Of a DNA stretch of 64,000 nucleotides, positions 3,621-63,559 are shown piece by piece. This stretch comes from Stegostoma tigrinum (Eukaryota). Every line of letters begins with the position of its first letter. Position 1 is the stretch's first letter. Position numbers and translations under genes: made by a program. Location of the stretch: NCBI RefSeq assembly GCF_030684315.1, contig NC_081357.1, forward strand, positions 66,389,517-66,453,516. The letters are read 5' to 3'. A model generated the notes under the pieces. The model was not told the origin of the DNA and ran no database searches. It saw only the letters and a list, made by a program, of their open reading frames with translations.

Positions 3621-3842
3621 AGATAACAAAGTGTGAAACTGGATGAACACAGCAGGCCAAGCAACATCTCAGGAGCACAAAATCTGACGTTTTGGGCCTA
3701 GACCCTTCATCAGAAAAGGGGGATGGGGAGAGGGTTCTGAAATAAATAGTGAGAGAGGGGAAGGTGGACTGAAGATGGATAGAGGAGAAGATAGGTGGAG
3801 AGGAGAGTATAGGTGAGAAGGTAGGGAGGGGATAGGTCAGTC
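3621..3842 (-). mobile_element. Penelope-like (Neptune-type) 3'-terminal fragment inserted in the Gypsy element
   Basis: Reverse complement of the element end seen at about 15935-16148, including the hammerhead core. It lacks the terminal tail. Confidence 0.9.
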
Positions 3843-7635: not shown

Positions 7636-8479
7636 TCAGTCATAGATAGAGCTGTACAGCATGGAAACAGACTCTTTTGTTGAACTCATCTATGCTGACC
7701 AGATATCCTGAATTAATCTAGTCCCATTTGCTAGCATTTGCCCATGTCCCTCTATCCTTCCTATTCATTTACCCATTCAGATGACTTTTAAATGTTGTAA
7801 TTGTACCAGCCTCCACCACTTCCTCTGGAAGCTCGTTCCATGCACGCACCAAACTCTGTATGAAGAAGGTCGCTTTTAAATCTTGCTGGAAAAGCTCATC
7901 AGGTCTGGCAGCATCTGGAAAGGAAGGAACAGAGTTAACATTTCAGGTCCAGTGACCCTTCCTCAGAATTCAGGGTCACCAGACCCAAAACATTAACTCT
8001 GTTTTTTCCTTCACAGATGCTGCCAGACCTGCTGAGCTTTTCCAGCAACTTTGTTTTTGTTCCTGAATCACAGCATCTGCAGTACTTTTGTTTTTTTTTG
8101 CTTTTATAAATCTTACCCCTCTCATCTTAAACCTCCAATCCTGGCAACATCCTTGTAAATCTTTTCTGAACCTTTTCAAGTTTCACAACATCCTTCCTAT
8201 AATACAAGACCAGAATCACACACAGTATTCCAAAAGTGGCCTAACCAATGTTCTGTACAGCACAACATGACCTTCCAATTCCTATACTCAATGCACCGAC
8301 CAATAAAGGCAAGCATACCAAACGCCTGCTTTACTATCCTGTCTACCTGCAACTTCGCTTTCAAGGAACTATGAACCTGCACTCCAAGATTCTTTTGTTC
8401 AGCAAGACTCCCTAGGACCTTACTATTAAGTGTATAAGTCCTGCCCTGATTTGCGTTTCCAAAATGCAGCACCTCACCT
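7636..8479 (-). mobile_element. CR1 LINE 3' fragment
   Basis: Minus ORF 8197-8472 MLHFGNANQGRTYTLNSKVLGSLAEQKNLGVQVHSSLK...AFGMLAFIGRCIEYRNW. CR1 3' UTR at about 7640-7720. Confidence 0.9.
7883..8100. mobile_element. Short Penelope-derived foldback insertion
   Basis: Inverted arms TTGCTGGAAAAGCTCA..CAGGTCTGGCAGCATCTG..AACAGAGTTAAC / TTAACTCTG..CAGATGCTGCCAGACCTGCTGAGCTTTTCCAGCAA, with a tail on the right arm only. Flanked by GCTTTT(AT)AAATCTT repeats. Confidence 0.8.
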
Positions 8480-14525: not shown

Positions 14526-16182
14526 TGATGCGGCGGAGGCAGAGGAATTGGGAATAGGGGATGGAATTTTTGCAGGAGGGTGGGTGGGAGGAGGTGTATT
14601 CTAGGTAGCTGTGGGAGTCGGTGGGCTTGAAATGGACATCAGTTACAAGCTGGTTGCCTGAGATGGAGACTGAGAGGTCCAGGAAGGTGAGGGACGTGCT
14701 GGAGATGGCCCAGGTGAACTGCAGCTTGGGGTGGAAGGTGTTGGTGAAGTGGATGAACTGTTTGAGCTCCTCTGGGGTGCAAGAGGCGGCGCCGACACAG
14801 TCATCAATGTACCGGAGGAAGAGGTGGGGTTTGGGGCCTGTGTAGGTGCGGAAGAGGGACTGTTCCACTTGTTCCACTAAAATTCCATCCCCTATTCCCA
14901 ATTCCTCCGCCTCCGCCGCATCTGATCCCACGACAAGACATTCCACTCCCGCACATCCCAGATGTCCAAGTTCTTCAAGGACCGCAACTTTCCCCCCACA
15001 GTGATCGAGAACGCCCTTGACCGCGTCTCCCGTATTTCCCGCAACACATCCCTCACACCCCGCCCCCGCCACAACTGCCAAAAGAGGATCCCCCTCGTTC
15101 TCACACACCACCCCACCAACCTCCGGATACAACGCATCGTCCTCCGACACTTCCGCCATCTACAATCCGACCCCACCACCCAAGACATTTTTCCATCCCC
15201 ACCCCTGTCTGCTTTCCGGAGAGACCACTCTCTCCATGACTCCCTTGTTCGCTCCACACTGCCCTCCAACCCCACCACACCCGGCAGCTTCCCCTGCAAC
15301 CGCAGGAAATGCTACACTTGCCCCCACACCTCCTCCCTCACCCCTATCCCAGGCCCCAAGATGACATTCCACATTAAGCAGAGGTTCACCTGCACATCTG
15401 CCAATGTGGTATACTGCATCCACTGTACCCGGTGTGGCTTCCTCTACATTGGGGAAACCAAGCGGAGGCTTGGGGACCGCTTTGCAGAACACCTCTGCTC
15501 AGTTCGCAACAAACAACTGCACCTCCCAGTCGCGAACCATTTCCACTCCCCCTCCCATTCTTTAGATGACATGTCCATCATGGGCCTCCTGCAGTGCCAC
15601 AATGATGCCACCCGAAGGTTGCAGGAACAGCAACTCATATTCCGCCTGGGAACCCTGCAGCCTAATGGTATCAATGTGGACTTCACCAGTTTCAAAACCC
15701 CCCCTTCCCCCACCGCATCCCTAAACCAGCCCAGTTCGTCCCCTCCCCCCACTGCACCACACAACCAGCCCAGCTCTTCCCCTCCGCCCACTGCATCCCA
15801 AAACCAGTCCAACCTGTCTCTGCCTCCCTAACCTGTTCTTCCTCTCACCCATCCCTTCCTCCCACCCCAAGCCGCACCCCCATCTACCTACTAACCTCAT
15901 CCCACCTCCTTGACCTGTCCGTCTTCCCTGGATTGACCTATCCCCTCCCTACCTCCCCACCTATACTCTCTCCACCTATCTTCTTTTGTCTCCATCTTCG
16001 GTCCGCCTCCCCCTCTCTCCCTATTTATTCCAGAACCCTCACCCCATTCCCCTCTCTGATGAAGGGTCTAGGCCCGAAACATCAGCTTTTGTGCTCCTGA
16101 GATGCTGCTTGGCCTGCTGTGTTCATCCAGCCTCACATTTTATTATCTTGGATTCTCCAGCATCTGCAGTTCCCATTATCTC
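14526..16182 (+). mobile_element. Young Penelope-like (Neptune-type) element, 5'-truncated with an inverted RT segment (14526-14868)
   Basis: The inverted part encodes FLRYIDDC..VHFKPTDSHSYL (RT). ORF 14962-15831 has a Cys linker PCNRRKCYTC and a GIY-YIG nuclease (NVVYCIHC..LYIGETKRRLGDRFAEHL..GIN). Hammerhead core at 16056-16083, followed by the terminal tail. Confidence 0.95.
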
Positions 16183-16587
16183 TAGAGTATTAAGGTACTC
16201 GGCGAAATGGTGATGAAAATCCAAAGCCGAGACCATTGTGAAAATATAAGTAAGAGTCAAATAGATGTAAGCACAAGGAAGTCCAGCATATCTCTTCATT
16301 GCCATGTTTTCCCTCAAAAATGTTATTAATATGAAATTTAATCCATAATAAACATTAAAATATATTACCTACATTTGATTGACTTCAATATATAAATTGT
16401 CTTTTGCCATTATAGTGGAATATTCTTGCTTGCCAGTATTTTATTCTTTCTTTCCTAATACTTAAGTATTACATTGATACTGGTGTTTGTTTTTCATTTT
16501 AGTTTATGAAAATGAAACATCATTACAGTTAAGTATAAAGAGTAGTCATTGATTTATACATTAAATCGAATACAATTATGATGAAAG

Positions 16588-31385: not shown

Positions 31386-31758
31386 ACCAACTTTCCAAGA
31401 CATATCATGGTTTGCTTTTGGTTAATGAATTGCAGCCTATTTACATCCAAGTTAAAGCATGAAGAAGGAGTGCTTAGAGAAGCTTTATTCCTCAGAAGCA
31501 TTCTGGAGCATCTTGCTTTTTGTTGTTCAGCTTATTCATTGTCACACTTCAATTACCATTTGATACCTACAGTGGGTTTGATCGGCAGATATCTCTGACA
31601 ATCCTGACAACACAGGTCTTCGACCAATTGTAGTATCTTTTGGTTTGTCCAAGGGTCACCTGTTAGAGGTTTATGTGAGCCTTGTGTCTCTGTCTGCAGT
31701 CAGATTCTCAAATAGCCAGTACCACACTGGTTTGTATTATTTAAATTTCATGTTATCT

Positions 31759-33635
31759 AAGGTTGGAGTAAATCTGTAGCTTGAGTTGTGGGTGTTGAGG
31801 TTGGTCGGCTCGCCGAGCTACTTTGTTGTTCCGCAGATTTGTTTCATTACCATGCTTGGTAACATCCTCTGTGCAGCCTCTGATGAAGCATTGCTGTGTT
31901 TTCCTGCCTGGTTTTTAAACTCTGGGGTCCGTTGCAATGGATTGCCTCACTTCCAGGTTTTCACCATAGTGGAATGTATATGGGGTTGAGTTCAATGTGT
32001 TTATTAAAAGCATGCTTTGTGGAATGCCATGCTTCTAGAAATTCTCGTGCCTGTCTCTGCCTAGACTGTGCCGGGATCTTGGTGTTGTCCGAGTCAAAGT
32101 GGTGGATCTCCTTGTTCATGTAGACTGAGATGAGTGCGTATTGCTCATGTCCTCTTGTAGCCAGTTGCTGTTCATGTACTCTTGTTGTTAGTTTCCTTCC
32201 TGTTTTGCCGATGTAATGTTTCTCACAGTCTCTGCAGGGGATCTTGTAGATGACATTGGTCCTTTCCATGGCAGGGGGTGGGTCCTTAGTTCAGGTGGAC
32301 AGTTGTTGCAGGGTTGACTTGGACTTGTGTGCCACTCTGATGCACAGTGGTCATAGGAGTCTTGTGGTGAGTTCCGACGCGTTCCTGATGTAGGGTAGTG
32401 TGATGAGTGTGTAGGGGCATGTAGTCTCTTTCTGATGCTGTTCGTGTAGGCATCTTCTGTCCCAATTCTTTGGATATCCAGTATCCTTAAAAACCTGGAA
32501 GAGATTTTCTTCTTCCTCTTGGCATAGTTCTGTGTTGCTGCAGTGTGTTGTTGCCCTTTTAAATAGTATTCGCATGCAGCTTTGTGTGCGCTGGGATAGT
32601 TACTGTTGAAGTTCAGTACCTGGTCTGTGTGTGTGGCTTTTCTGTGTACTTTCATTTGCAGTTCCCCATTTGTCCTGCGCTCTACCGTGACACCCAGGAA
32701 TGGGAACTGTTTGTTCTTCTCCTCCTCTCTGTTGAATTTTATTCCGGTAAAGGTATTATTTGTAAGTTTGAAAGAGTTTAAAAACTTTCAAAAGTACACC
32801 AAAAAAGACACTCATGCAGACCATGTACTTAGCTTCAATTGTAACAATGCCAGCACACACAAATGAAGCTGCGTGCAAACACTATTTAAAAGGGCAACAA
32901 CACACGGCAGCAACACGGAACTATGCCAAGAGGAAGAAGAATACCTCTTCCAGATTTTCAAGGATACTGGATGTCCAAAGAGCTGTGTCAGGATGTGCCT
33001 ACACGAACAGCATCAGATCGATTCTCCATGTCCCAACACACTCATCACACTACCCTACATCAGGAACACACTGGAACTCACCACAAGGCTTATCAACCGT
33101 TGGGCATCAGAGTGGCACACAAGCCCACATCAAGCCTAGGACAAGTGCTCACCCGAACTAAAGAACCACTCCCCACCATGGACAGGGCCAACGTCATCTA
33201 CAAGGATCCCCTGCAGAAACTGTAAGAAGCACTACATCAGACAAACAGGAAGGAAAATAACAACAAGAATACATGAACACCAACTGGCTACAAAAAGGCA
33301 CGACCAATACTCACTCATCTCAATCCACATGGACAAGGAGAACCACGACTTTGACTGGGACAACACCAAACTCCTGGGACACGCGAGGCAGAGACAAGCA
33401 TGAAAATTCCTGAAAGCGTGGCACTCCACAAAGAATGCCATTAATAAACACATTGAACTCGACCCCACTTTGGAGGAAACCCGGAAGTGAGGCAATCCAT
33501 CGCAACGGACCCCAGATTTTAAAAACCAGGTGAGAAAACACACCAATGCTTCATCAGAGGCTGCACTGAGGATGTTACAAAGCATGGTAACGAAACGTCT
33601 GCGGAACAACAAACCAGCTCAGCGAGCCAACCAAC
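31759..33635. mobile_element. Poseidon-type Penelope foldback insertion (minus arm 31759-32760, plus arm 32793-33635)
   Basis: Both arms encode RKxTH.D.VL.FN..LFKRATTH and NVIYK.PC...HYI..TGRK (GIY-YIG without a Cys linker). TSD TTCATGTTAYCT at 31747-31758 and 33636-33647. Confidence 0.92.
33561..33604 (+). ncRNA. Minimal type I hammerhead ribozyme (Poseidon terminal repeat)
   Basis: CTGCA-CTGAGGA-T-GTTAC-aaagcatg-GTAAC-GAAAC-GTC-TGCGG: helix I CTGCA/TGCGG, helix II GTTAC/GTAAC, palindromic ACGT in place of helix III. Confidence 0.8.
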
Positions 33636-33672
33636 TTCATGTTACCTGACAAGCAGCATGAATTGTAGCATA

Positions 33673-35781
33673 GATAATAAAATGTGGGGCTGGATGAACA
33701 CAGCAGGCCAAGCAGCATCTCAGGAGCACAAAAGCTGACGTTTCGGGCCTCGACCCTTCATCAGAGAGGGAGATGGGGTGAGGGGTCTGGAATAAATAGG
33801 GAGAGAGGGGGAGGTGGACCGAAGATGGAGAGAAAAGAAGATAGGTGGAGAGAGTATAGGTGGGGAGGTAGGGAGGGGATAGATCAGTCCAGGGAAGACG
33901 GACAGGTCAAGGAGGTTGGATGAGGTTAGTAGGTAGATGGGGGTGCGGCTTGGGGTGGGAGGAAGGGATGGGTGAGAGGAAGAACAGGTTAGGGAGGCAG
34001 AGACAGGTTGGACTGGTTTTGGGATGCAGTGGGTGGAGGGGAAGAGCTGGGCTGGTTGTGTGGTGCAGTGGGGGGAGGGGACGAACTGGGTTGGTTTAGG
34101 GATGCAGTTGGGGAAGGGGAGATTTTGAAACTGGTGAAGTCCACATTGATACCATTAGGCTGCAGGTTCCCAGGCGGAATATGAGTTGCTGTTCCTGCAA
34201 CCTTCGGGTGGCATCATTGTGGCACTGCAGGAGGCCCATGATGGACAAGTCATCTAAAGAATGGGAGGGCGAGTGGAAATGGTTTGCGACTGGGAGGTGC
34301 AGTTGTTTGTTGCGAACTGAGCGGAGGTGTTCTGCAAAACGGTCTCCAAGCCTCTGCTTGGTTTCCCCAATGTAGAGGACTGATGTCCATTTCAAGCCCA
34401 CCGACTCCCACAGTAACCTAGAATACACCTCCTCCCACCCACCCTCCAGCAAAAATTCCATCCCCTATTCCCAATTCCTCCGCCTCCACCGCATCTGCTC
34501 CCACGATAAGACATTCCACTCCCACACATCCAGATGTCCAAGTTCTTCAAGGACCGCAACATTCCCCCCACAGTGATCGAGAATGCCCTTGACCGCGTCT
34601 CCAGCATTTCCCGCAACACATCCCTCACACCCCGCCCCCGCCACAACCGCCCAAAGAGGATCCCCCTCGTTCTCACACACCACCCCACCATCATCCGGAT
34701 ACACACACCACCCCACCAACCTCCGGATACAACGCATCATCCTCCGACACTTCCGCCATCTACAATCCGACCCGACCACCCAAGACATTTTCCATCCCCA
34801 CCCCTGTCTGCTTTCCAGAGAGACCCCTCTCTCCGTGACTCCCTTGTTCGCTCCACACTGCCCTCCAACCCCACCACACCCGGCACCTTCCCCTGCAACC
34901 GCAGGAAATGCTACACTTGCCCCCACACCTCCTCCCTCACCCCTATCCCAGGCCCCAAGATGACATTCCACATTAAGCAGAGGTTCACCTGCACATCTGC
35001 CAATGTGGTATACTGCATCCACTGTACCCGGTGTGGCTTCCTCTACATTGGGGAAACCAAGCGGAGGCTTGGAGACCGTTTTGCAGAACACCTCCGCTCA
35101 GTTCGCAACAAACAACTGCACCTCCCAGTCGCAAACCATTTCCACTCGCCCTCCCATTCTTTAGATGACATGTCCATCATGGGCCTCCTGCAGTGCCACA
35201 ATGATGCCACCCGAAGGTTGCAGGAACAGCAACTCATATTCCGCTTGGGAACCCTGCAGCCTAATGGTATCAATGTGGACTTCACCAGCTTCAAAATCTC
35301 CCCTTCCCCCACCGCATCCCTAAAGCAGCCCAGTTTGTCCCCTCCCCCCACTGCACCACACAACCAGCCCAGCTCTTCCCCTCCACCCACTGCATCCCAA
35401 AACCAGTCCAACCTGTCTCTGCCTCCCTAACCTGTTCTTCCTCTCACCCATCCCTTCCTCCCACCCCAAGCCGCACCTCCAGCTACCTACTAACCTCATC
35501 CCACCTCCTTGACCTGTCCGTCTTCCCTGGACTGACCTATCCCCTCCCTACCTCCCCACCTATACTCTCTCCACCTGTCTTCTTTTCTCTCCATCTTCGG
35601 TCCGCCTCCCCCTCTCTCCCTATTTATTCCAGAACCCTCACCCCATCCCCCTCTCTGATGAAGGGTCTAGGCCCGAAACGTCAGCTTTTGTGCTCCTGAG
35701 ATGCTGCTTGGCCTGCTGTGTTCATCCAGCCTCACATTTTATTATCTTGGATTCTCCAGCATCTGCAGTTCCCATTATCTC
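33673..35781. mobile_element. Young Neptune-type Penelope foldback insertion (minus arm 33673-34378, plus arm 34379-35781)
   Basis: Both arms carry the GIY-YIG end and 3' terminal region. ORF 34534-35430. TSD TGAATYGTAGCATA at 33659-33672 and 35782-35795. Confidence 0.95.
35651..35690 (+). ncRNA. Minimal hammerhead ribozyme core (Neptune terminal repeat); copies also at 16056 and 63302 (+) and near 33737 and 55367 (-)
   Basis: CTGATGA-A-GGGTC-TA-GGCCC-GAAAC-GTC. The core and helix II are clear, but helix I is only about 2 bp as read locally. Confidence 0.6.
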
Positions 35782-36767
35782 TGAATCGTAGCATATCATG
35801 GTGTGAAAAGTGAGTTTATGTTTTAAAGTCTATATTAAGAGTGATGGTTAGCAGCTCCCTTAGTATGTTGAATGTCAAGAAGGATCAAACAATATATGAG
35901 TTTCTGTTGTATATTATTGATTTTTTATTCGCTTCTGTCTGGGTCATAAACTACCTGTAGCAGAAATTATTCTCCATAATCCCTAGTAAAGCAGAATAAT
36001 AGAAGGATCATAATTCCCAGGGTTAAGGTACTCTTGAAAATAAACAACATAGAAATTTCACTCAACAACAAAATTCTGACATAGATGGGCTCAGAGAGTG
36101 TGAGAGTCAGAATTTATGGCCAGGTCCGTAACCGGGGTATTTAGGAGTAAAGATTTCTTATTAAACAATTTGAGGATATTTGCAATGGACGTCCTGAAGT
36201 ATCTTTGGCATAGATCTCATCTGCTGCAAACAGACACAGGTTCTGGACTTTGTGAAGACCCCAAATTTAATGCTGTAGCGAGACCAATATTCAAAAATAG
36301 ATTTACCAACATCGCATTACATAGAATATGCAACACAAAAATAATTGTTTCTGAGCTTAAGTATCTGATTTTAGCCAGGATCACCATATTAGATATGTAG
36401 CCACCAATGATAGGGATGGCACAGTTCATACGAACAGGTGTATATCTAACAATATGCCAGGAACCACAGCAAACAATCTCTGGAAGTAGAGTATTCCTTT
36501 CCAAAGTTCCATCTTCCCTCAAGCTCAAATCTGTCCTTCAGCTCTTCAAACTTAAATTATTCAATTATATCGTGGCAACCAACTTACTTATTGCTGTATA
36601 GGCCATGATACATTTAAGTAACAAATATGTGATAACGCTATACATTTAAATGTTTTTCTGTCAGTATTTTGGTATTTTCTCACTGAAACAAAGTGCAATT
36701 TGTTCACTCAAAACTAACTTTCAAAGAATTTAAGTGGCAGAATTTTGTCTTCTTGTAAACTTATGCA

Positions 36768-44500: not shown

Positions 44501-46132
44501 GATTAATGGCATAAATTCACACCTTCCAGCACTTTGAACTTAATTACTTCAATTCATAAAAAAAAAGCTCATGCTCAGGAAAATGAGTCTAAGTTCATTT
44601 CACATGCAATATTTTGCACAATTAATATAGCCTGGTCTCTGAAGATTAAGCCATTATTGTAGTGATGACTCACTTGATATTTATCTGATGCATACGGTCT
44701 TTAATGAGAAATGTCACCAGTGTGACTGCCACCAGACGTCTTTTGGGGATATTGGGGCATAATGTTGTTTTTCACGAGGAGAGGCTGTTTCAGGTTCGCA
44801 ATGCCATGTCCTGATAAGACAAGTGAGGATTAGAATGCCTAAAATGTGCTCTTTCCTTTTTGATGCGAATAACACACTACCCTTGCAAAATTTCCATTTC
44901 GCACAGCTGTGCACAGCAGTCAATTCTTTCATTTTTCAATTGCCTCAGGTGATGACTAAATTATTCCATGAAGCTTAAGGTTTGATATGAGGGGCAGAAA
45001 TGCTAAAGATTATAAGGCAGGACCACAGAAATAGGATATTAAATTTAGCCTAAAATCCAATAATCACCAAAGCAAGATGGTGTATTTCTTTGCAATGTGT
45101 TCATTACGCTAAATTAATGTGTTAATGCTGCCTCATTATAACTGGGCAGTAGGCCTGAATTGGTCTCTGTTGTACTTTCACGTAAGGGATATTTTTTGCA
45201 AATTCTCACATAGTCAACTGAGTCCACTGTTTAATCTTTACGAGATCCGCAAGAAGTGTAAGGACATATCTTGACATCATGAACTTCTAGGTGAACTTGT
45301 AGCTTTGCGAATATAAAGCAGCCCTTCTGAGTACAAAACAATATTATGCCCCAATATCCCCACAAGACATCTAGAGCCAAGCATTTAAGAAGTTTAAGGC
45401 AGACTTCTGTCTGAATGAGCAAATCAACATTCAAGCAACAAATCTATCAGTTGTAACAGAGAATTCTTTTAATGAACTGAAAACGTGGGGATATAGCTTT
45501 AAACAATGGAAAAGATCTATCTATTGTTGAGAAAGTGTTTCTTTGGACTTTGAATTGAAAATGAGAAGAAATAGGTTCAGCTTTAAATAGAGGAAGAAAT
45601 GTTGTTTGCAGCTTACAAGGCAAGCGAAGCACACCAATACATATGCAACGGTGTTACTTTTGGTGACCCCAGAGGCACACAAACTGACGGTACCTGTATG
45701 TTCAGGACATCTCTGCCCAAATGCAGTCTTTTGATTGGCAGCAGTGGTCCTGTGTCCAGGAAAACTCAACATAGTTTAACATGCCTGTGGAAGGGATAGA
45801 AAACAGAAGTCGCCCTCTCAAAAGTTCACTTGCTCCGAAAAAATTTGTCCTTTCCACCTCTGTTAAACATGTAGATAAATCTACATTCAGAGTTGCCATA
45901 AGAAAGAATACTAAAGTTTGCAGGGGTAAAAAAGAGCCCTGGATTGATTAAATTAACCAGTAAACTAAAGACTGCTCATTGCTGCACAAATATCATTGAG
46001 ACATCAATGAAGGAAGGAAAAGGACCGTGCATGCAAGTTCTATGTATTTGAATTGGCGACACAATTCCTATGATTATTTTGTCCCTCCCCTCCACTTGCT
46101 GTATTTGTACGCATCTGTTTTACTTCATATTG

Positions 46133-47227
46133 TATGAAATAGAGATGCTGGTGTTGGACTAGGGCGGACTAGGTCAGAAGTCACTCGATGCCAGGTTACA
46201 GCCCAAAAGGTTTATTTGAAAACGCAACCTTTCGGAGCCTCACTACCTCTTCAGGCGTTAGTGAGAGAGGTAGTATCTGACACAGAATTTATACATAAAA
46301 GATCAAAGGTTCACACCATTGATGAGGATATACTAAACAAAGCCAAGATGCTGTTAAATCTTTAAACAGTTAGAAGGTTTTAACTAATTATTATCCCTGA
46401 ATTCTTTTCAGGTCATTGCCCTGAGAGAACTAAAGGTTTTATTAGTGTAAAGAAGGGGTGGCATTTTAGATCAGACAATGCACGTTAGGTGTGAGGTCTT
46501 GTATAGAATCTGTTTGTGTTTTAGTTTGGAGTCAGACTGGTTTTGTTTCTAAAGTAGGAATTTATAAAACACTATATTTACTGAGTATCTATAAATTGTG
46601 TACTTTTTGAACAAAATAAAATGTATCTGCAACTACAAATTCACACCATTGATTCAGATTTGTGTGCATGTGTATGTGTGTAGGGGGGAGGGTTGTGTGG
46701 GGGGAGAGAGAGAGTGTGTGTATGTGAGGGGAGAGAGCATGTGTTTATGTGTGTGAGGGGAGGAGAGAGTGAGAGGGTGTGTGTGTATGTGTGTGTGAGA
46801 GAGAGAGGGCATGGTGACAGTGAGTGTGATTGTGTGTGTGTGTGTTTATGTGTGTGTGTGTTTATGTGTGTGTGGAAGAGAGGGAGTGTGCGTGTGGGAG
46901 AGAGAGAGTGTGTATGGGAGAGAGTGTGTGTGTATGTGGGAGAGGGAGAGATGTGTGTGTGTGAAGGAGAGTGTGTGTATGTGTGTGGGAGAGAGAGAGA
47001 GACTTTGTGTGGGAGAGAGTATGCGTGTGAAGGAGAGAGAGAGATAGATTGTGTATGTGGGGGAGAGAGAGAGTGTGTGCTTGGGAGAGAGAGTGTGTCG
47101 TGTGTGTGTGAGAGAGAGAGAGAAAGTGTGTGTGTGGGAGAGAAAAAGTGAGTGCGTAGGAGAGAGAGTGAGTGTGTGTGGGATAGAGAGGTGTGTGTGT
47201 GAATGAGAGAGTGTGTGTGGGGGAGAT

Positions 47228-47302
<75 letters not shown>

Positions 47303-47418
47303 GATTGTGTGAAGGGGAGAGAAAACTCACCCCTCTCTCTCCCCTTCAGACACTCTCTTTCACACACACATATATAAACACATTCTCTCCATCCCTCAGA
47401 CACACACACACACACACA

Positions 47419-47452
<34 letters not shown>

Positions 47453-48230
47453 ATCTCTCCCACACACACACTCTCTCCCCCTCACATACACACTCTTTCT
47501 CTCCCACACACACACACACTCTCTCTCTCTCTTTCTCTCCCATACACACACACACACTCTCTCTCTCTCTTTCTCTCCCTCACACACACTCTCTCCACAC
47601 CTCCACACACACAAACTCTTTCTCTCCCTCTCTCTCTTTCACACACACATACACACACTCCCTCTCCCTCGCCACTCTCTCACACACTCTCTCCCACCCA
47701 GCACATACACACACACACACACACACAAATCTGTGGGGTGAATGTGTATTTGCAGATACATTTTGTTTTATTCAAAAAGCACACAATTTATGGACAGTCA
47801 GCCAATATGGCATTTTATAATTTCCAGCTTGAAAAATAAAACCAGCCTGACTCCAAACCAAAACACAAACAGATTCTAAACAAGGACTCACACATAACAT
47901 GCATTGTCTGATCTAAAATGTCACTTCTTCTTTACACTGGTAAGCCTTTAGTTCTTTCAGGACACTGACTTGAAAGGAATTCGGAGATTTACATGTACAT
48001 ATTAATCAATTAAACCGATTCTAAACTTTCTAACTGATTAATCATTTAACAGCATCTTGGGTTTGTTTTAGTACATCCTCGTTAATGGTGTGAACCTTTG
48101 ATGTTTTACTTATAAATTCTGTGTCTGATATTCTCTCTCACTAACATCTGAAGAAGGACTGAGGATCTGAAAGCTTGTGTTTTCACATAAACCTGTTGGA
48201 CTATAACCTGGTTTCATGTGATTTCTGACT
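46133..48230. mobile_element. ~2.1-kb foldback of Penelope-type 3' termini with a central inverted low-complexity block
   Basis: 46175-46670 is the reverse complement of 47720-48230. GT/GA-rich 46660-47322 mirrors CA/CT-rich 47326-47727. Hammerhead-like CTGAAGA..GAAAGCTT at 48148-48176. The terminus matches 56582-56690. Confidence 0.85.
47230..47297. repeat. (TG)34 microsatellite within a compound GT/GA-CA/CT tract (46660-47727)
   Basis: Pure TG run read directly from the sequence. Confidence 0.95.
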
Positions 48231-49469
48231 TCATTTTGATTGTGTGAGTGAGAGTTTTTATCGGGGTCTAAGTTACTTAGCAATCGTGCACTTTTACTGT
48301 TCTTGTCCAAATTATACAATTATATTTTAGAAATTCATTTAACATTGGTTAAAGTTAGTTAGAATTGATATTTTCTTGGTAATGGAAACAAAAACTGGTC
48401 AGCATATGCCGCTAACCTGAATCAGACAGTTAGGCTCAGTGGGGCAATTTGCTGGCTTAATCTAACTTCCACATGTGTAACAACTTGGAAAGTGGTGGTG
48501 TTTGATTTACAATGCATTTTACTTGATGAGCCACGCTGCTACAGAAATTTATATTGGAAGTTAATTCGCCTTGTGTTTACTTGCATGTCTTTTTCCTTGA
48601 TGTGATTGAAGAATGTTGCACAAACCGCGTGTGGAGAAATGCATTTGTACACTGCAATTTTTTCACTCTGCGCATCATGTGATGTCTGAAATTGTTGGTT
48701 TCTGTTGAGAAATTTGGGACAGAAGCCATTAAAGATGAAACATAAAATGTAGTGTCAGAAGTTTGTAACTGAAGTTGTGCGGATGGTAGATGTAAAAGAG
48801 CCAGCTGCTGTAAGAAATTGCTTGGAATAATTAAGAACTCTCACATGTAACTTTGTACTTGTTATATGAATCATTATGCCAGTGAATTCTCCAGTCCATT
48901 CTTCCAGGGCAATGATGGCAATTTGCGACCAGAATTTTAAATAAAGTAATACAGCTGAGGGGGTTAATGTTTATCTTATAATGGCTCCACCTATTCTACT
49001 GACGTCATATGCAGTCCATGGGTGAAGCAAGGAGTTAGCCTCTGGCTTTCAGAGGGAGCTACTGCATTTGTACCAGTTCCCTAAGGTGCTAGTAATTGCG
49101 CCTCACCAAATGTAGATGCCCTTTCTGCTGTAAGTACAATAAACCGTCTTCAATAAATTATTGTAATAAATCTTCTTGTTATCCAAGAAAGGTGCCTAAT
49201 CTGCAGATGCTCTAAGGTGATAGTGTTTCTACAACTAATCACTAGTTAGGCCTAAGAGCAAGCAAAGACAAACAAGAATTGTTGCTAGCAAACTACTTCA
49301 AAATAACGTTTACCAAGTAGCACAGACTACTAAGGGTGGCAAATACTGCAAGATGCCACTGTGGCCATCTAGGAAAATGCTACAAGAAGAATTTTACTTT
49401 TTTTTCATTGAGACAAGAATATGAGACAGCTACAGCATTAAATAGGAAATCAAAACCAAGAGAGTAGCA

Positions 49470-56320: not shown

Positions 56321-56581
56321 GTGGAGGAAGAAGATCTTTTTGTCATGGATCCTGTAAGAATTGATAGTATAAATTGAACTAGACATGATTTTTTGTTGTG
56401 AAAGTTTGAAGAGTTAGGTCTAAATGAAAATAAAATTAGTCATCTCTGGATTGCAAACTGAGGCATGCTTCAAATGAAATAGGTTCATACAAATTCACAA
56501 CATTAATGTGTGGCCATAGAGAGGTGTGGAAAGAAAGAGTTTTGATTCATAAAGCAGCAGCACCAATACTTACAAAAGTGA

Positions 56582-58761
56582 TGATGTGGAGCTGCGGGTG
56601 TTGGACTGAGGTGGACAAGGTCAGAAGTCACATGGCACCAGGTTATAGTCCAACAGGTTTATTTGAAGCGCTGCTCCTTTGTCAGGCGAAGTGACCAACC
56701 AGGAGTACCACAGACAACTTTCTGCCAATCCAACCAAAGACCACACCCGTCAACTCAACAGACTGATCAAATCCTTTGATCCAGACCTTCAGACTATCCT
56801 ATGCACTCTCATCCCACGTACTTCTCACATAGGAGACTTCTACTGCCTGCCGAAGGTACACAAAGCCCACACACCCTGATACCCCATCGTGTCAAGCAGT
56901 GGAACCCTGTGTGAGAACCTCTCTAGTTATTTTGAGGGCAGCTTGAAACCCATTGTACAGGGAACCCCCAGCATCTGTCACAATACTACAGACGTCTTAC
57001 AGAAACTCAGCACCCACAGACCAGACAAGCCAGGAACATTCTTCATCATAATGGACGTTTTGACACTCTCCACTATTTTGCCCCACAATGACAGCGTCGC
57101 TGCAGCAGCCTCAGTACTCAACACCAACAACTGCCAATTTCCATACACCATTTTACAACTCATCCTCTTCATCTGCGACTACATCTTCACCTTTGACAAC
57201 GTGCTGTGTATCCAGACATACAGAACAGGCGAGGGGACCAAATTTTCACCCCAATACGCCAACATTTTCATGCACAAGTTTGAACAAGACTTCTTTGCTG
57301 CACAGGACCTCCAACCAATGCTGTACACCAGATGCATCAATGATATTTTCCTCCTGTGGACTTATGGCGAGGAATCACTGCAACAACAATACAGTGATAT
57401 CAACAGGTTTCATCCCATCATTAGACTTACCATGGACTACTTTTCAGAATCAGTTTCATTCTCAGACAAATGCATCTCCATCAGGGACAGACACCTCAGT
57501 ACCCCACTCTACCTCAAGCCTAGAGATAATCACATGATGCTTCACTTCTCTAGCTTCCACTGAAACACATTAAAGAAGCCATCCCCTACGGACAAACCAT
57601 GTGTATACACAGGATATGCTCAGATGAGGAAAAACACAAAGAACACCTACAAATGCTGAAAGATGCCGTCAAAAGAATGGGATACAATGCTCAACCCATC
57701 GATCACCAGTTCCGATGTGCCACAGCAAAAAACCTTAATGATCTCCTCAGAAGACAGACACGGGACGCAAGCAGTGGAGTACCCTTCATCATCCAATACT
57801 TCCCTGGAGTGGACAAACTACGCCGTGGTCTTTTCAACCTTCAACATGTCATCGATGACGACGAACATCTCGCCAGGGCCATCCTACACCTTCACTTCTT
57901 GCTTTCAAACAGCCACCGAGTCTCAAACAGACCGTCATTTGCAGCAATGTACCCAGCCTTCAGGAGAACAGTGACCACAACGCCACACAACCCTGCAAAC
58001 TATGCAAGACATGTCAGACCATTGATATGGACACTATCATCACTCGCGGGAACACTACCCACCACGTACACGGTTCACGTGATTCGGCTGAGTGTTGTCT
58101 ATCTCATAGAAAAGAACGCCCCGAGGCGTGGTGTATCAGCGAGATGCTACGATAATGGATGAATGGACACTGCACAACAATTGCTGGGCAGGAGTATGCC
58201 CTCTCAGTCAGGGAACACCTCAGTGGCCAAAGCCATTCAGCCTCCTCCAAGGCAGCCTTCGAGATACACAATGCAGAATTGCCAAGCAGAAGCTGATAGC
58301 AAAGTTCTGTACCCATGAAGACGCCCTCAAATGTGATCTTGGGTTCATATTGTGCTATATATGACCCCACCATACTGGACTGTGTTTAAAAAATCTTCCT
58401 TACGGTCCTGTTTTGACACCATCACTTTGATAACTTGTTATGATCTCCTTACCTTAATTAGTTTGTACAGTTTTGGAATACTTCCTACTTTGGTTAGATC
58501 TTCATCATGCAACTCTCATATCCATTTGGTTTATCTCTAGCACCATCTCATTTTTGATTTTTTGTAATTATCTCTTTGCCTTAATTAATTGGATCATGGG
58601 TCATCCCTTCAATTGTTATTCAGCCTGTCGCCACTCCACTCACACCATTTGGACTATCTTTTGACAATCTTAATTACCTGGAATGTTCTTGTAAGAATCT
58701 CTCTGCTTATAAATTCTGTGCCTGTGCACTTCCCTTCACTTCACTTGGCAAAGGAGCAGCA
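56582..58761 (+). mobile_element. Penelope-like element of a third family (RT and nuclease remnants) with a short inverted terminal arm at 56582-56688
   Basis: FYCLPKVHK, MDV..L...PH, PQYANIFMHKFE, TRCINDIFLLW, LYLKP, AIPYGQ..IHRICS, CRIAKQKLIAKF. TSD TTACAAAWGTGA at 56570-56581 and 58762-58773. Confidence 0.9.
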
Positions 58762-59419
58762 TTACAAATGTGAGAACTATTCCTTTGTTTGGACTCTACT
58801 TAAACCGGGATATTATCAGTGTCCTAGAAAATCATATAACTTGGGCTGTGGATAAAGCATTAACCTAACAGTAGACAGGAATAGTTCAACTGAAGAAAAG
58901 TTTGGAAATGTGAAATAAGAGTGTGACTCACACAACGGGGAAGCCCAAACTCTACAATGTCACGGTGATATAAGATTTGGGCTATTGATCGTTGAATTCC
59001 ATTGGCTGAATAAAACCTGGGACTTTCATGGACTTGAAGTTTTTAAAAAGGGACTAAAAACACTGGCTCGCAAGCTCTACAGATGGTTCCTGACTCACAC
59101 GGGTTGGCAAAGTTTCCTGAAACTCGACACAAAATATGTCACAGACAACCTGAGCTGAAATTACCATTTTCGCCATTACAATGAAACCAGTCAGACAGGT
59201 TCCCAACCACCATTGTGGCTGTGAAAAGATCCTGCTTTTTACTTGAGTTAAATAATTATGATTATCTTCTCACTTGGAAATGAAAATGTCACCTACAATT
59301 ATCAACCTGGATACTGAACTCAGCAGGTCAAATATACAAACAAGCCAATTTTTTGAGAGTTTTTGGGGAAATAAAAGAGATGGAATCTAGACTGTAGAAC
59401 TAAACACAGCGTGAAGAAG

Positions 59420-59609
59420 ATAATAAAATGTGAGGCTGGATGAACACAGCAGGCCAAGCAGCATCCCAGGAGCACAAAAGCTGACGTTTCGGGCCTTCTA
59501 GGCCCGAAACGTCAGCTTTTGTGCTCCTGGGATGCTGCTTGGCCTGCTGCGTTCATCCAGCCTCACATGTTATTGTCCTGGATTCTCCAGCATCTGCAGT
59601 TCCCATTAT
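59420..59609. mobile_element. 190-bp Penelope-derived hairpin insertion
   Basis: About 77-bp near-perfect inverted arms plus a ~35-nt tail. Perfect 15-bp direct repeat CACAGCGTGAAGAAG at 59405-59419 and 59610-59624. Confidence 0.95.
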
Positions 59610-62225
59610 CACAGCGTGAAGAAGGTTCTCTCTCTCCTGAAATGGAAAATATCCAGTGGTAATGCTGGCTGGGAAAAAAATAAATCAGGAAACCCAGAAT
59701 TTATAAGTGCAGCATTTTCTACTGTTTACTGCCTTTAAAAAAACTAATCAATCACGGTTTCAGATTAAAATATTATGCCTCAAGGACATCATGAGGATTC
59801 AAACATATGTGTTCCTTTATCTTCCTTTTGTACTGATCACTATCCATTGAGGGTATGCTTGTGAGGGCCTAAGTAACCACACAAAGGCCCCGTGCTTGAT
59901 ATACTAATCGGAAGTGTTTTAAAACCCCTACCCTTTAAATTTGAAGCAAAACAGCTGCAGCTGTCACTGAGAATTTAAAGGAAAATCTTCTGATGCAGTT
60001 TTAATTGGCCATGTGCTGCATAAATGAAAACCATAGCATCTGGTCATTAGAACTTCACTAGAATATCTTTATTGGCATTTGTCCAAGGGCTATCATTATG
60101 TTAATATTAACGCCTAGCTCAGTTTCCAAATCTATAGCCATCCCAACAAGCAGTTCTAAGTTCAGTTTGATTTCTAATTTGAAGAAACTATAGATTATTA
60201 ACTTACTTTGATAGGAGAGCTGAACAGAGTTTTTTTGTTGTTTTTCAAGAAATTAACCATTTGTGGAGACTTAAAGACCTTGTAGATTTCAGGGATGGAT
60301 TTTTTTCACTATATAATGTGTAGGAGTGAGAGCTGTATTGGATTGTTCGAGATTTTTCTTTCATATTCAGATGGCTCCTAAGGGTTTTCCCATGGTGGAT
60401 ATTGAGTGAGTGGCTATGGAGGCGGCAGAGAGGGAATGAGGGGGCAGCAGAGTGGGTTAGGATTATCATTGAGTTGGCGTAGAGGGTACGAGTGGCCATA
60501 CGGGTGGTTGGGGAGATGAGAAGGTGAAGGGATAGAGGGCCCTTCAGCTTCTGAAATAACTGAGACAAGATACTAAAGGACTAACCAACCTTGGCATTCA
60601 CCCAACTCTGTTGGATTCAAAGGGTCTGATTCTATTCTGAACAAACCACACCCCAACATATGTGATCCAGGTTACAATTTAATTAAGTGAGTCCAGCTAA
60701 TCAGGAAATATCCTGACACAAACCTCATTAATAAAAAATACTGCTGTCTTCTCTCTTCAAATTCATGGCCATGGTTTTTGTGGAAGTTTAAGTCTGCTAT
60801 GTTTGTAGATGATTAATAATTGTTGAATAGCTAACATGTTATAGTTAGACTGTAAACTGCCCTGCCTGTGAATTTATGACAGGAATTCTGCAAAACCTCA
60901 GGAATTTATTTCCCTGGGGAAGTTTGGTTATTTTATTCTGTTGCTCCATTCACCGAGATTTTACTCTCCATGTTGAAGAAACAGCACCTACTGTTCACCT
61001 CATTAAGAACTGCTCACAGACACTTCACTAGTTTGACAGTGGAGATTTCCGCTAATCCCACATCCTTTCCAGCACAGCAAGTATGTGACATTTGTAAACA
61101 GGAACAGAAAGGAACAAGAATTTGCTCTTCAAAGAATCAATGTAATGTATCCTTATTGACAGAGGCTGAGGCCAAGGAGTATAAAGCAGGAAATATAAAT
61201 AAGATTTAAATAATATAGAAGAGAAAAAGTAAAGACTATGAAGTACATATGGGATTAGAGAGAGATAAAGAAAACATAATAAGGAAGGACAAAAGTTTTA
61301 AATTTTATATTTTTGGAACGGTCCAATGATCATTTTTTTCTGAGGAAATGTTTTTTATTATAAGGCCAGAGAAGTAGTGTATAAGCGATTATCAATTGTC
61401 AGGGCACTAAAAGGACTCAATTACCTGTTAACATAAAAGTATTAACTTTTTAGTTTTTTTGTATAAAACTAATTGCTATTATAGCAAGTTGATTAGCAAG
61501 TACTATGAGATCACATCCAGTGGAAATTCAGTGTATCCCTCACTGTAACTACTTGATTTCCAATTCCCATAACTAACCACATGTGTGGCCACCCTTCCAA
61601 CCCCTACACTCCACTCTCAGCAAACACTCCTGACCCTCGACATTGCTGTAGGTTTCTTTCATGATAACAGAAACTTTTGAGCATTGACAGCTTCACTGCT
61701 ATTGTTTTGCAAATTTTGGACTAAATTATTTGCTTTTTCTGCCGTTTTAAGCTTCATGAAAACAGTGAGTTGTGATAATGCAATCTGCTAGCAATTTATT
61801 ATTTTCAGTATTGAACTTTGTTCTTGTTTCTTCAAAATGATTCTGCTTTATAGTGGATGGGGAAGAGTGGGAAATGCATACTCAATAAGATCACTGTTAT
61901 TTCAAAGTTACCTAGGAGGCTACAGACAGATTTTAGATTAGAATGAGAATTTGTTCATTATATCAGGCAGAAATGAAATGTATTGCATTACTATTCATTG
62001 AATTGTTATAAAAAGAAATATGTTTGCTTGGAAGGACTTCACATAAACAATCCTGAAAGTAAATTGAAAATATTTTCTACTGATGCAGCCAAGACATGGC
62101 CAACATCCATGCAATTATCAGATTAGTCAGCTAAAGAGAACAGTGATCTGAATAAGTGATGGATGATTTACCAGCAATTTACTTTGAGTCAATCACACTT
62201 CTCAAACAGAACTTCCCTTTGATAA

Positions 62226-62414
62226 TAGAGATAACAAGGTGTAGAGCTGGATAAACACACGAGGCCAAACAGCATCAGAGGAGCAGGAAAGCTGACATTT
62301 CGGGCCCAGACCCTTCTTCAGAAAAAAATCTCCAACATCTACAATTCCTACTATCTCTGAAACAATTTTAACCCCACTGCAAAGCCTCTTCAGCATCTGC
62401 AGTTCCTATTATCT
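62226..62414. mobile_element. Penelope mini-insertion: inverted arm plus two tail copies
   Basis: Minus arm at 62226-62322 and tail copies at about 62328-62358 and 62386-62414. Perfect 14-bp TSD CTTCCCTTTGATAA at 62212-62225 and 62415-62428. Confidence 0.88.
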
Positions 62415-62777
62415 CTTCCCTTTGATAACATTACTTTATATAAACAATGGGGTCCACTTTAGAGTCAACTTACATGTAAGTCTTTGCATTGCATGGTACA
62501 GTACATTCCAGGGAGCACACCATACTGGATGAATCTGGTTCTGCTCTACTGATTATGTTGAATTCTCGAGGACCAGTCACTGTTCTACCTCACACTTCCT
62601 TTACCCAAGTCTGTGCTTCCTATTTATCCATCCCATGATAATTTCAGTAATTACAATTACTGATGAGTTGTCCTTTTTTCAAACATTCTTTTTCTTAGTA
62701 TTTTTGGCCGAAAGCAAAGGAGTTTGCTTATATGAAGATCGCTTTATATCAGAAACATTGCAAATAAATATATAGGT

Positions 62778-63431
62778 CGCCAACCATTTCCACTCCCCCT
62801 CCCATTCTCTAGATGACATGTCCATCATGGGCCTCCTGCACTGCCACAATGATGCCACCCGAAGGTTGCAGGAACAGCAACTCATATTCCGCCTGGGAAC
62901 CCTGCAGCCATATGGTATCAATGTGGACTTCACCAGTTTCAAAATCTCCCCTTCCCCCACCGCATCCCTAAACCAGCCTAATTCGTCCCCTCCCCCCACT
63001 GCACCACACAACCAGCCCAGCTCTTCCCCCCCACCCACTGCATCCCAAAACCAGTCCAACCTGTCTCTGCCTCCCTAACCGGTTCTTCCTCTCACCCATC
63101 CCTTCCTCCCACACCAAGCCGCACCCCCATCTACCTACTAACCTCATCCCACCTCCTTGACCTGTCCGTCTTCCCTGGACTGACCTATCCCCTCCCTACC
63201 TCCCACCTATACTCTCTCCACCTATCTTCTTTACTCTCCATCTTCGGTCCGCCTCCCCCTCTCTCCCTATTTATTCCAGCTCCCTCTCCCCATCCCCCTC
63301 TCTGATGAAGGGTCTAGGCCCGAAACGTCAGCTTTTGTGCTCCTGAGATGCTGCTTGGCCTGCTGTGTTCATCCAGCCTCACATTTTATTATCTTGGAAT
63401 TCTCCAGCATCTGCAGTTCCCATTATCTCTG
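62778..63431 (+). mobile_element. Young 5'-truncated Neptune-type Penelope copy
   Basis: Near-identical to 15530-16182. Hammerhead core at 63302-63329. 8-bp TSD ATATAGGT at 62770-62777 and 63432-63439. Confidence 0.95.
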
Positions 63432-63559
63432 ATATAGGTACCATTATCGTTTTTTACTAGATCCAATCTACATATAAACTGTTGATAAGAAAATAGAGTA
63501 CAGTGCAGGATAATTCCCCATAGACAAGGAGCACTTTTATGTTATTTCTTAAATAGAGG

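Follow-up and report, generated by a model that had tools for sequence, protein, structure and literature searches.

Two-arm insertions of Penelope-like elements (PLEs) in this genome follow a regular plan: two outward-facing arms lie inside one target-site duplication (TSD), and only one of them carries a short tail. In a genome sample of the main family, exactly one tail was present in 143 of 145 TSD-validated two-arm insertions. Since these one-tailed pairs lie between mirror-image cuts about 14 bases apart, both target strands are likely to prime, one at each of two start points. The type case is found at 33659-35795 of the window, the whole stretch of 64,000 nucleotides that was analyzed. 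The insertions examined are dead Penelope-like retrotransposon insertions. Their layout and two start sites are known, and the pattern is a regular signature of a known element class. Added here are the strict pairing, TSDs of 13-16 bp, a mirrored cut site, overlaps at the junctions, a case against fold-back and a hint of two templates.

Structure and classification of the main element

The initial annotation had described the 3' end of an element at both flanks of one 14-bp TSD, with a tail of about 35 nt on the right, and this observation is real. At 33659-35795, two outward-facing arms lie inside a single 14-bp TSD, the copies of which (33659-33672 and 35782-35795) are identical at 13 of 14 positions. 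The element shares one and three end bases with these copies, the last base of the left copy being common to the arm, so the TSD measures 10-14 bp. The tail-less inverted arm (33672-34379, minus strand; element positions -708 to 0) covers the end of the GIY-YIG region, the 3' UTR and the pLTR with its hammerhead-like core, and lacks the final 35 nt of the element. Its sequence matches 35039-35747 in reverse complement, differing in 20 of 709 aligned columns. The arms meet head-to-head at 34379 with a 1-nt overlap and no filler. They have two rare variants in common, yet differ at four subfamily sites.

The tail-bearing arm (34379-35782, plus strand) is a 5'-truncated Neptune-type PLE, and the two arms together (33672-35782) form one such element. 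On its plus strand are a frame with an RT-thumb remnant, a C-x4-C-x2-C linker and a GIY-YIG endonuclease (34510-35430); a TATA-like motif that may act as a promoter (35622-35628), some 28 nt before the sharp 5' edge of arms; a minimal hammerhead-like core, CTGATGA..GAAA..GTC, that was spotted by eye (35655-35684); and the 35-nt tail, which runs from register 1 to register 2 (35748-35782). The motif ATTATC closes both registers, at 35747 and 35779-35782. Register ends are alike in three of the four families, with ATTATC in the main family, CCAACCT at 31759-31796 and TTTGTTTTT at 8059-8100; the third family has no such repeat. A short motif at both registers may mark a docking site for the RT.

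Several features are those of EN+ PLEs. A GIY-YIG endonuclease lies C-terminal to the RT; its matches to PF01541 (E=8e-4, for the frame at 34510-35430, and 4e-4) fall under the curated cut-off, and the translation contains a YIGET motif. Pfam returned matches in only 2 of 15 frames. EN+ PLEs have a telomerase-like RT core in the same ORF; the main copy retains only the RT thumb and the EN, and the core seen in the third family is decayed and gave no Pfam match. The tail is of the 30-40 nt typical of EN+ PLEs and overlaps the start of the next unit, with arm ends bimodal at 0 and +35. The direct or inverted terminal arrangement with a TSD is likewise present. A CX2-5CxxC linker between RT and EN marks the Neptune/Nematis clade, according to the available text of PMC8557442, and occurs as C-x4-C-x2-C in the main element and C-x2-C-x2-C in the third family. 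Through this linker the main family is probably placed with Neptune/Nematis, the label 'Neptune' resting on the linker and on the initial annotation. The frame 2 translation of 31759-33635 has no Cys linker before GIY-YIG, as in Penelope/Poseidon elements. In EN+ PLEs the pLTR has a hammerhead motif; an Rfam search of 31600-36000, including the hammerhead-like core, gave no matches, and RNA folding of the arm end with its tail (z=1.08) does not support a special structure.

Other insertions in the window

The initial annotation had extended the same asymmetry to further sites, and a TSD was found at every one of them, although two depart from the plan on one side. The short Neptune-type two-arm insertion at 59405-59624 has a TSD identical at 15 of 15 positions and an empty site in a related organism. 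An older Neptune-type insertion (62212-62428; TSD 14/14) combines a tail-less arm with tail fragments. Its tail side, within 62226-62414, consists only of tail pieces and 33 nt beyond the tail, the inverted core being absent; at 62328-62414, a piece extending 33 nt beyond register 2 is followed by a second partial tail, which would reflect either priming further downstream or a restart. The Poseidon-type insertion (31747-33647; TSD 11/12) has no CxxC linker and carries its tail on the left arm. Its TSD stops 11 bp before that of the main element starts (33647-33659); two PLE clades adjoin here. Two insertions belong to the third family: one at 46123-48238 with a 39-nt tail on the left arm (TSD 9/10), and one at 56570-58773 with a CxxC linker and the tail on a short left arm (TSD 11/12). 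The long arm of the latter (element 56582-58761) ends about 50-60 nt short of the tail-less register, register 1, of its family. The fourth family is represented by a short two-arm insertion at 7874-8114 (TSD 10/11).

Tail-less Neptune arms had also been said to start at the same AGATAA throughout. One of these starts lies at 62229 instead of 62228, and the arms at 3621, 54633, 55304 and 55880 are single arms, not parts of two-arm events. A one-arm, tail-bearing insertion of the main family with an 8-bp direct repeat (62770-63439, plus strand) is a counter-example to any universal rule. At 14527-16183, an inverted piece of the same family has an internal outer end (-1252) and a 44-nt overlap with the tail arm, and no TSD was found around it; the arrangement resembles a 5' inversion of the L1 type or the outcome of a subsequent deletion.

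One tail per pair in a genome sample

In the source genome (3.2 Gb), a 32-mer from the arm core has 146,177 exact matches, and a 43-mer spanning the tail has 13,146. We sampled 190 loci, comprising 30 + 51 selected by the tail pattern, 89 selected by a core pattern blind to the tail, and 200 kb adjoining the window. The stitched sample amounts to 147 segments and 1,637,899 bases (1.64 Mb), drawn from parts of two contigs only. It yielded 696 arm matches, many from one satellite, and from these 414 outward candidate pairs, 145 of which have a flanking direct repeat. In the null for the TSD test, 24 of 2958 mismatched flank pairs passed (0.8% false positives). A satellite at C1:2860526-2865938 consists of 108 copies of a 50-bp unit with 91% matches and continues into the next sampled locus; the repeated sequence is the stem region immediately 5' of register 1 in an older PLE subfamily.

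Free choice of register by each arm would leave about half of the pairs mixed, against the 143 of 145 observed. BLAST ends identify 131 pairs as tail plus tail-less, and in 12 more the match of the tail-less arm stops early. Only one pair has two tails and one has none, so tails are not found on both arms as often as on one, an outcome that the initial annotation had named as contrary to its reading. The tail-blind subset gives the same result (one tail in 96 of 97 events). For finer counts 139 of the 145 pairs were retained, leaving out the two-tailed pair, the pair without a tail and four others in which the repeats were short or ends could not be mapped. The tail lies on the right in 64 of these and on the left in 75. 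In the three other families, the few validated pairs have one tail in 2/2, 2/2 and 5/7 cases, by a script that missed the window's own three examples.

The initial annotation had presented the two-arm arrangement as a recurrent rule in four families. The pattern is indeed regular, but it is no universal rule, since TSD-bearing insertions with one arm are common. Among 162 unpaired arms of at least 88% identity, 47 have a duplication at the 5' end (28 tailed, 19 tail-less; null 22/3000). An inverted piece without a called TSD accompanies another 41, including one further tail/tail pair; 59 have neither a duplication nor an inverted piece, and 15 could not be scored.

Probable priming registers and target site

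Tail-less arms end at -3 to +2 in 117 of 139 events, and tails end at +33 to +38 in 111. The random arm ends that would have spoken against the initial annotation are not seen, and its two registers about 35 nt apart stand as windows of a few bases, with no single fixed base. Beyond the tail, the element continues into the start of an ORF (locus L011), so both priming sites are internal to the RNA. They lie just upstream of an ORF start, most often near the likely 5' end of the RNA; the two start sites postulated initially are supported, but not their location in the 3' region.

The duplication overlaps the element by a mean of 1.45 nt at tail-less junctions and 2.0 nt at tail junctions, against 0.74 nt in simulation. 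Of 139 events, 57 overlap the element's continuation by at least 2 nt at the tail-less junction and 80 do so at the tail junction, compared with about 18% when simulated. Primer-template overlaps of 1-3 nt are thus in excess at both outer junctions. Direct-repeat length grows by 0.39 nt per overlapping base, so only part of the overlap represents primer pairing.

Direct repeats measure 13-16 bp in 114 of 145 events, with a mode of 14-15. Read towards the duplication, both flanks are rich in A at -9 to -6 (up to 0.61 and 0.63) and have C at -5; AAC occupies the motif position in 50 and 43 of the 139 events, compared with 16 and 15 further out. Weight matrices of the two flanks correlate (r=0.94) and predict each other, scoring a mean of +1.3 bits against -1.4 for random sequence and -3.1 for the wrong strand. 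Given this mirrored profile, one enzyme most likely made the cuts at both ends of the insertion. Of 39 events that could be scored with the profile as anchor, 22 have a stagger of 14-15. Geometrically, two outward arms inside one duplication imply nicks that leave 3' overhangs.

We consider coupled dual priming the probable origin of these insertions: a protein dimer makes a staggered cut, and each 3' end primes inside the element RNA, one at each end of the tail. The dimer would nick the two target strands about 14 bases apart, leaving 3' overhangs of 14-15 nt, each of which would anneal to the RNA over 1-3 bases, at either register 1 or register 2. Synthesis of the two cDNAs would then proceed towards the RNA 5' end and mostly run off at a transcription start that probably lies about 97 nt upstream of register 1, giving products of 220-230 bp. 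Their 3' ends would be joined by end-joining, with 0-6 nt of overlap or short fillers. Failure of one primer would produce a one-arm insertion with the same TSD. The one-of-each pairing implies two active sites held in unequal positions. On the observed side of the model stand one TSD per unit, one tail per pair, mirrored flanks, short outer overlaps and a sharp 5' edge. Priming of both nicked strands, as already suggested by the initial annotation, is supported by the mirrored profile, by overlap at both junctions and by pairs in which neither arm is contained in the other. Against the model, the evidence comes from old genomic copies only, with no intermediates seen; in five inverted pairs, which belong to the 41 without a called TSD and not to the 145, the tail-less arm begins, as judged by eye, 16-60 nt inside; and the in vitro study of a lizard element saw the same start sites on either strand (PMC11167929).

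The strongest alternative, though an unlikely one, is that both arms start at the tail end, in a single register, and that the endonuclease trims one tail during resolution. This would explain the strict one-tail pattern without unequal priming, end-joining afterwards could also give short overlaps, and the available sections of PMC8557442 regard the tail as most likely derived from EN-mediated resolution. However, reverse transcription in vitro starts at both tail ends, as reported in the accessible part of PMC11167929, and 19 TSD-bearing one-arm insertions are tail-less. The TSD is also intact on the tail-less side and of the same length as elsewhere.

Arm inner ends and templates

The inner ends of the arms have a sharp 5' edge: 98 of 278 arms end at -98 to -85, and only three at -130 to -99. 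Lying about 28 nt past the TATA-like motif, this edge suggests run-off at a transcription start, which would also account for the peak of insertions of 200-235 bp. In several one-arm copies (inner end -94 to -97) an extra G directly precedes the edge, as copying of a cap would give. A further 19 arms end at -66 to -62, adjoining the hammerhead-like cleavage triplet. Both arms are short in 91 of the 139 pairs, both are long in 42, and six are mixed. With only those six of mixed length, derivation of one arm from the 5' pLTR and of the other from the 3' pLTR was ruled out. In long pairs, the two inner ends lie no more than 45 nt apart in 8 of 28 cases, against 2.2 expected by chance (p=0.0008). 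A common length class and matched long ends fit one RNA, or two with coupled termination.

A very improbable explanation, though less so than the two that follow it, is that a single cDNA self-primes by folding back and that the resulting hairpin, once opened, is attached to the other end of the target. Self-priming has been proposed for palindromic junctions (PMC3846280, in the portion available), inner ends lie within 5 nt of each other in 51 of 139 pairs, and a few long pairs are near-identical (0 differences at 1187 sites). Equal inner ends are, however, also explained by run-off at one RNA 5' end. Moreover, in 27 of 139 pairs the 5' reach of the tail-less arm exceeds that of the tail arm by at least 20 nt, and in 14 by at least 100 nt; in those 27 the tail-less arm has 5' sequence absent from the tail arm, which in turn has the tail. 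In such pairs neither arm can have been copied from the other, which argues against fold-back as a general route. Pairs that differ at subfamily sites beyond background (16/139, see below) point the same way. Fold-back is therefore largely refuted in general, and some short events could have arisen through it. The 5-kb two-arm insertion at C1:1175490-1180560, with a perfect TSD and arms identical over 1187 compared sites, is either very young or homogenised.

Slightly less credible still is a second arm made by host repair, as an RNA- or cDNA-templated patch of the break. The arm-arm junctions do resemble end-joining, with overlaps of 0-9 nt in 71 of 139 and fillers of at least 10 nt in 24, four of the latter with matches of at least 12 nt to nearby DNA. 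Yet repair would not give the same flank profile (r=0.94), a narrow range of TSD lengths and a fixed register. Fillers copied from DNA adjoining the landing site were seen at C1 ~11427860-11428400 and C1 ~16178970, with matches of 80 nt and 16 nt or more. Two independent neighbouring insertions, or a later rearrangement, can be dismissed almost entirely: the family is very dense (146,177 matches), but a single TSD surrounds both arms at a false-positive rate of 0.8%, the empty site is clean, the arms face outward and registers pair one of each.

The empty site was examined by comparing contigs of a related organism with 58800-60400, for the 59405-59624 event only. In one of the related records, 59404 is joined directly to 59610 (record positions 1905/1904), so that neither arm is present and the 15-bp repeat occurs once. 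Another record, from a second study, is compatible with the same join, though placed on one side only. The two-arm unit at 59405-59624 arrived as a single event, and independent insertion is refuted for it; the orthologous comparison proposed in the initial annotation thus came out in favour of its reading, the related organism lacking the whole unit while keeping one TSD copy.

Across 53 sites diagnostic for subfamilies, 138 of 1361 comparisons show a mismatch between the arms of a pair (10.1%). The figure is 3.2% at invariant sites and would be 42% with a free draw of templates. Sharing of rare variants between arms is 12 times more frequent within events than across them. In nearest-neighbour ranking of arms, younger copies of one source can outrank an arm's own partner. 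Differences exceed background at p<0.01 in 16 of 139 events, and a mixture fit puts the fraction at about one third; 19 events differ at three or more linked sites, and five of these pass a strict test in which both haplotypes recur elsewhere. Most pairs come from one source; for a minority with two haplotypes, the cause could be two RNAs, a switch of template or subsequent gene conversion. The two subfamily haplotypes in this minority hint at two RNA templates.

Significance

How PLE integration is completed and how the inverted repeats originate are described as unresolved in the available text of PMC11167929 and PMC8557442. The genomic record supplies numbers that can be tested in the existing in vitro system: a mirrored target profile, a 14-15-nt stagger, one-of-each starts, 1-3-nt pairing and mixed-template products. 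More tentatively, PLE integration may be a coupled double TPRT in which a dimer at a mirror-symmetric site with a 14-15-nt 3' stagger uses two RNAs in unequal registers, cDNAs of different source elements can be joined (heterozygous particles, as in retroviruses), and the shorter cDNA ends the reaction. If true, retrotransposons would have a third route of integration, one that dispenses with a second-strand primer at the target. For the design of RNA-templated insertion tools, an enzyme able to cleave the two strands at a defined spacing and to copy RNA onto each end would also be of interest.

Relation to known systems

Complex insertions of EN+ PLEs resemble those described here in having an inverted truncated copy, a 30-40-nt tail and one TSD, and an inverted 5'-truncated copy with such a tail at one end is already in print (PMC3846280 and PMC8557442, as far as their text is available). 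Pen2a_Av and its relatives have an inverted pLTR, optionally with a tail on one, and rotifer TSDs of 8-10 bp (PMC3846280, same portion), and the tail is drawn as often present at one end only in the accessible PMC8557442. In contrast to this optional or often one-sided tail, 143 of 145 pairs here are one-of-each, with a TSD mode of 14-15 and a mirrored profile. Penelope of D. virilis, in the excerpt of PMC2377424 at hand, has a partial tandem structure with flanking inverted repeats and a 34-bp repeat. Its inverted terminal repeats of variable size and 34-bp terminal element are like those seen here, but it forms full-length tandems where the present insertions are mostly run-off products of about 220-230 bp. 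The literature searched, with most subscription papers outside the search, contained no statement on coupled one-of-each priming or a fixed stagger, and the available part of bioRxiv 10.64898/2026.07.22.740005 has nothing on tails or target sites.

The closest experimental system is PAc, a Poseidon element of the lizard Anolis, whereas the main family here is Neptune-type. In vitro TPRT by PAc cleaves and extends both strands, RT starts at two internal sites bounding the tail, a dimer is predicted and the target is AT-rich (PMC11167929, available sections). The two internal starts and the extension of both strands are as inferred here, so the dual-priming idea of the initial annotation had in part been shown before. 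The same sections report no difference in start site between strands, describe the start site as lacking homology to the cleaved DNA, and state that later integration steps are unvalidated. Our junction overlaps soften the statement on homology without overturning it. The available text of that study does not report that the two sites are used together on a single target, nor does it describe a set stagger, overlap between primer and template, or two cDNAs joined into an inverted unit.

The arrangement also differs from that of L1-type twin priming, as a 709-bp region that includes the 3' end is present in both arms. In L1 twin priming, both target strands prime on the RNA and the arms are joined by short overlaps within a single TSD; the second primer anneals at internal positions that vary, the inverted part is 5' sequence absent from the other arm, and the 3' end occurs once, without duplication. 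Here, by contrast, the arms start at two fixed registers 35 nt apart, and the same stretch is copied twice.
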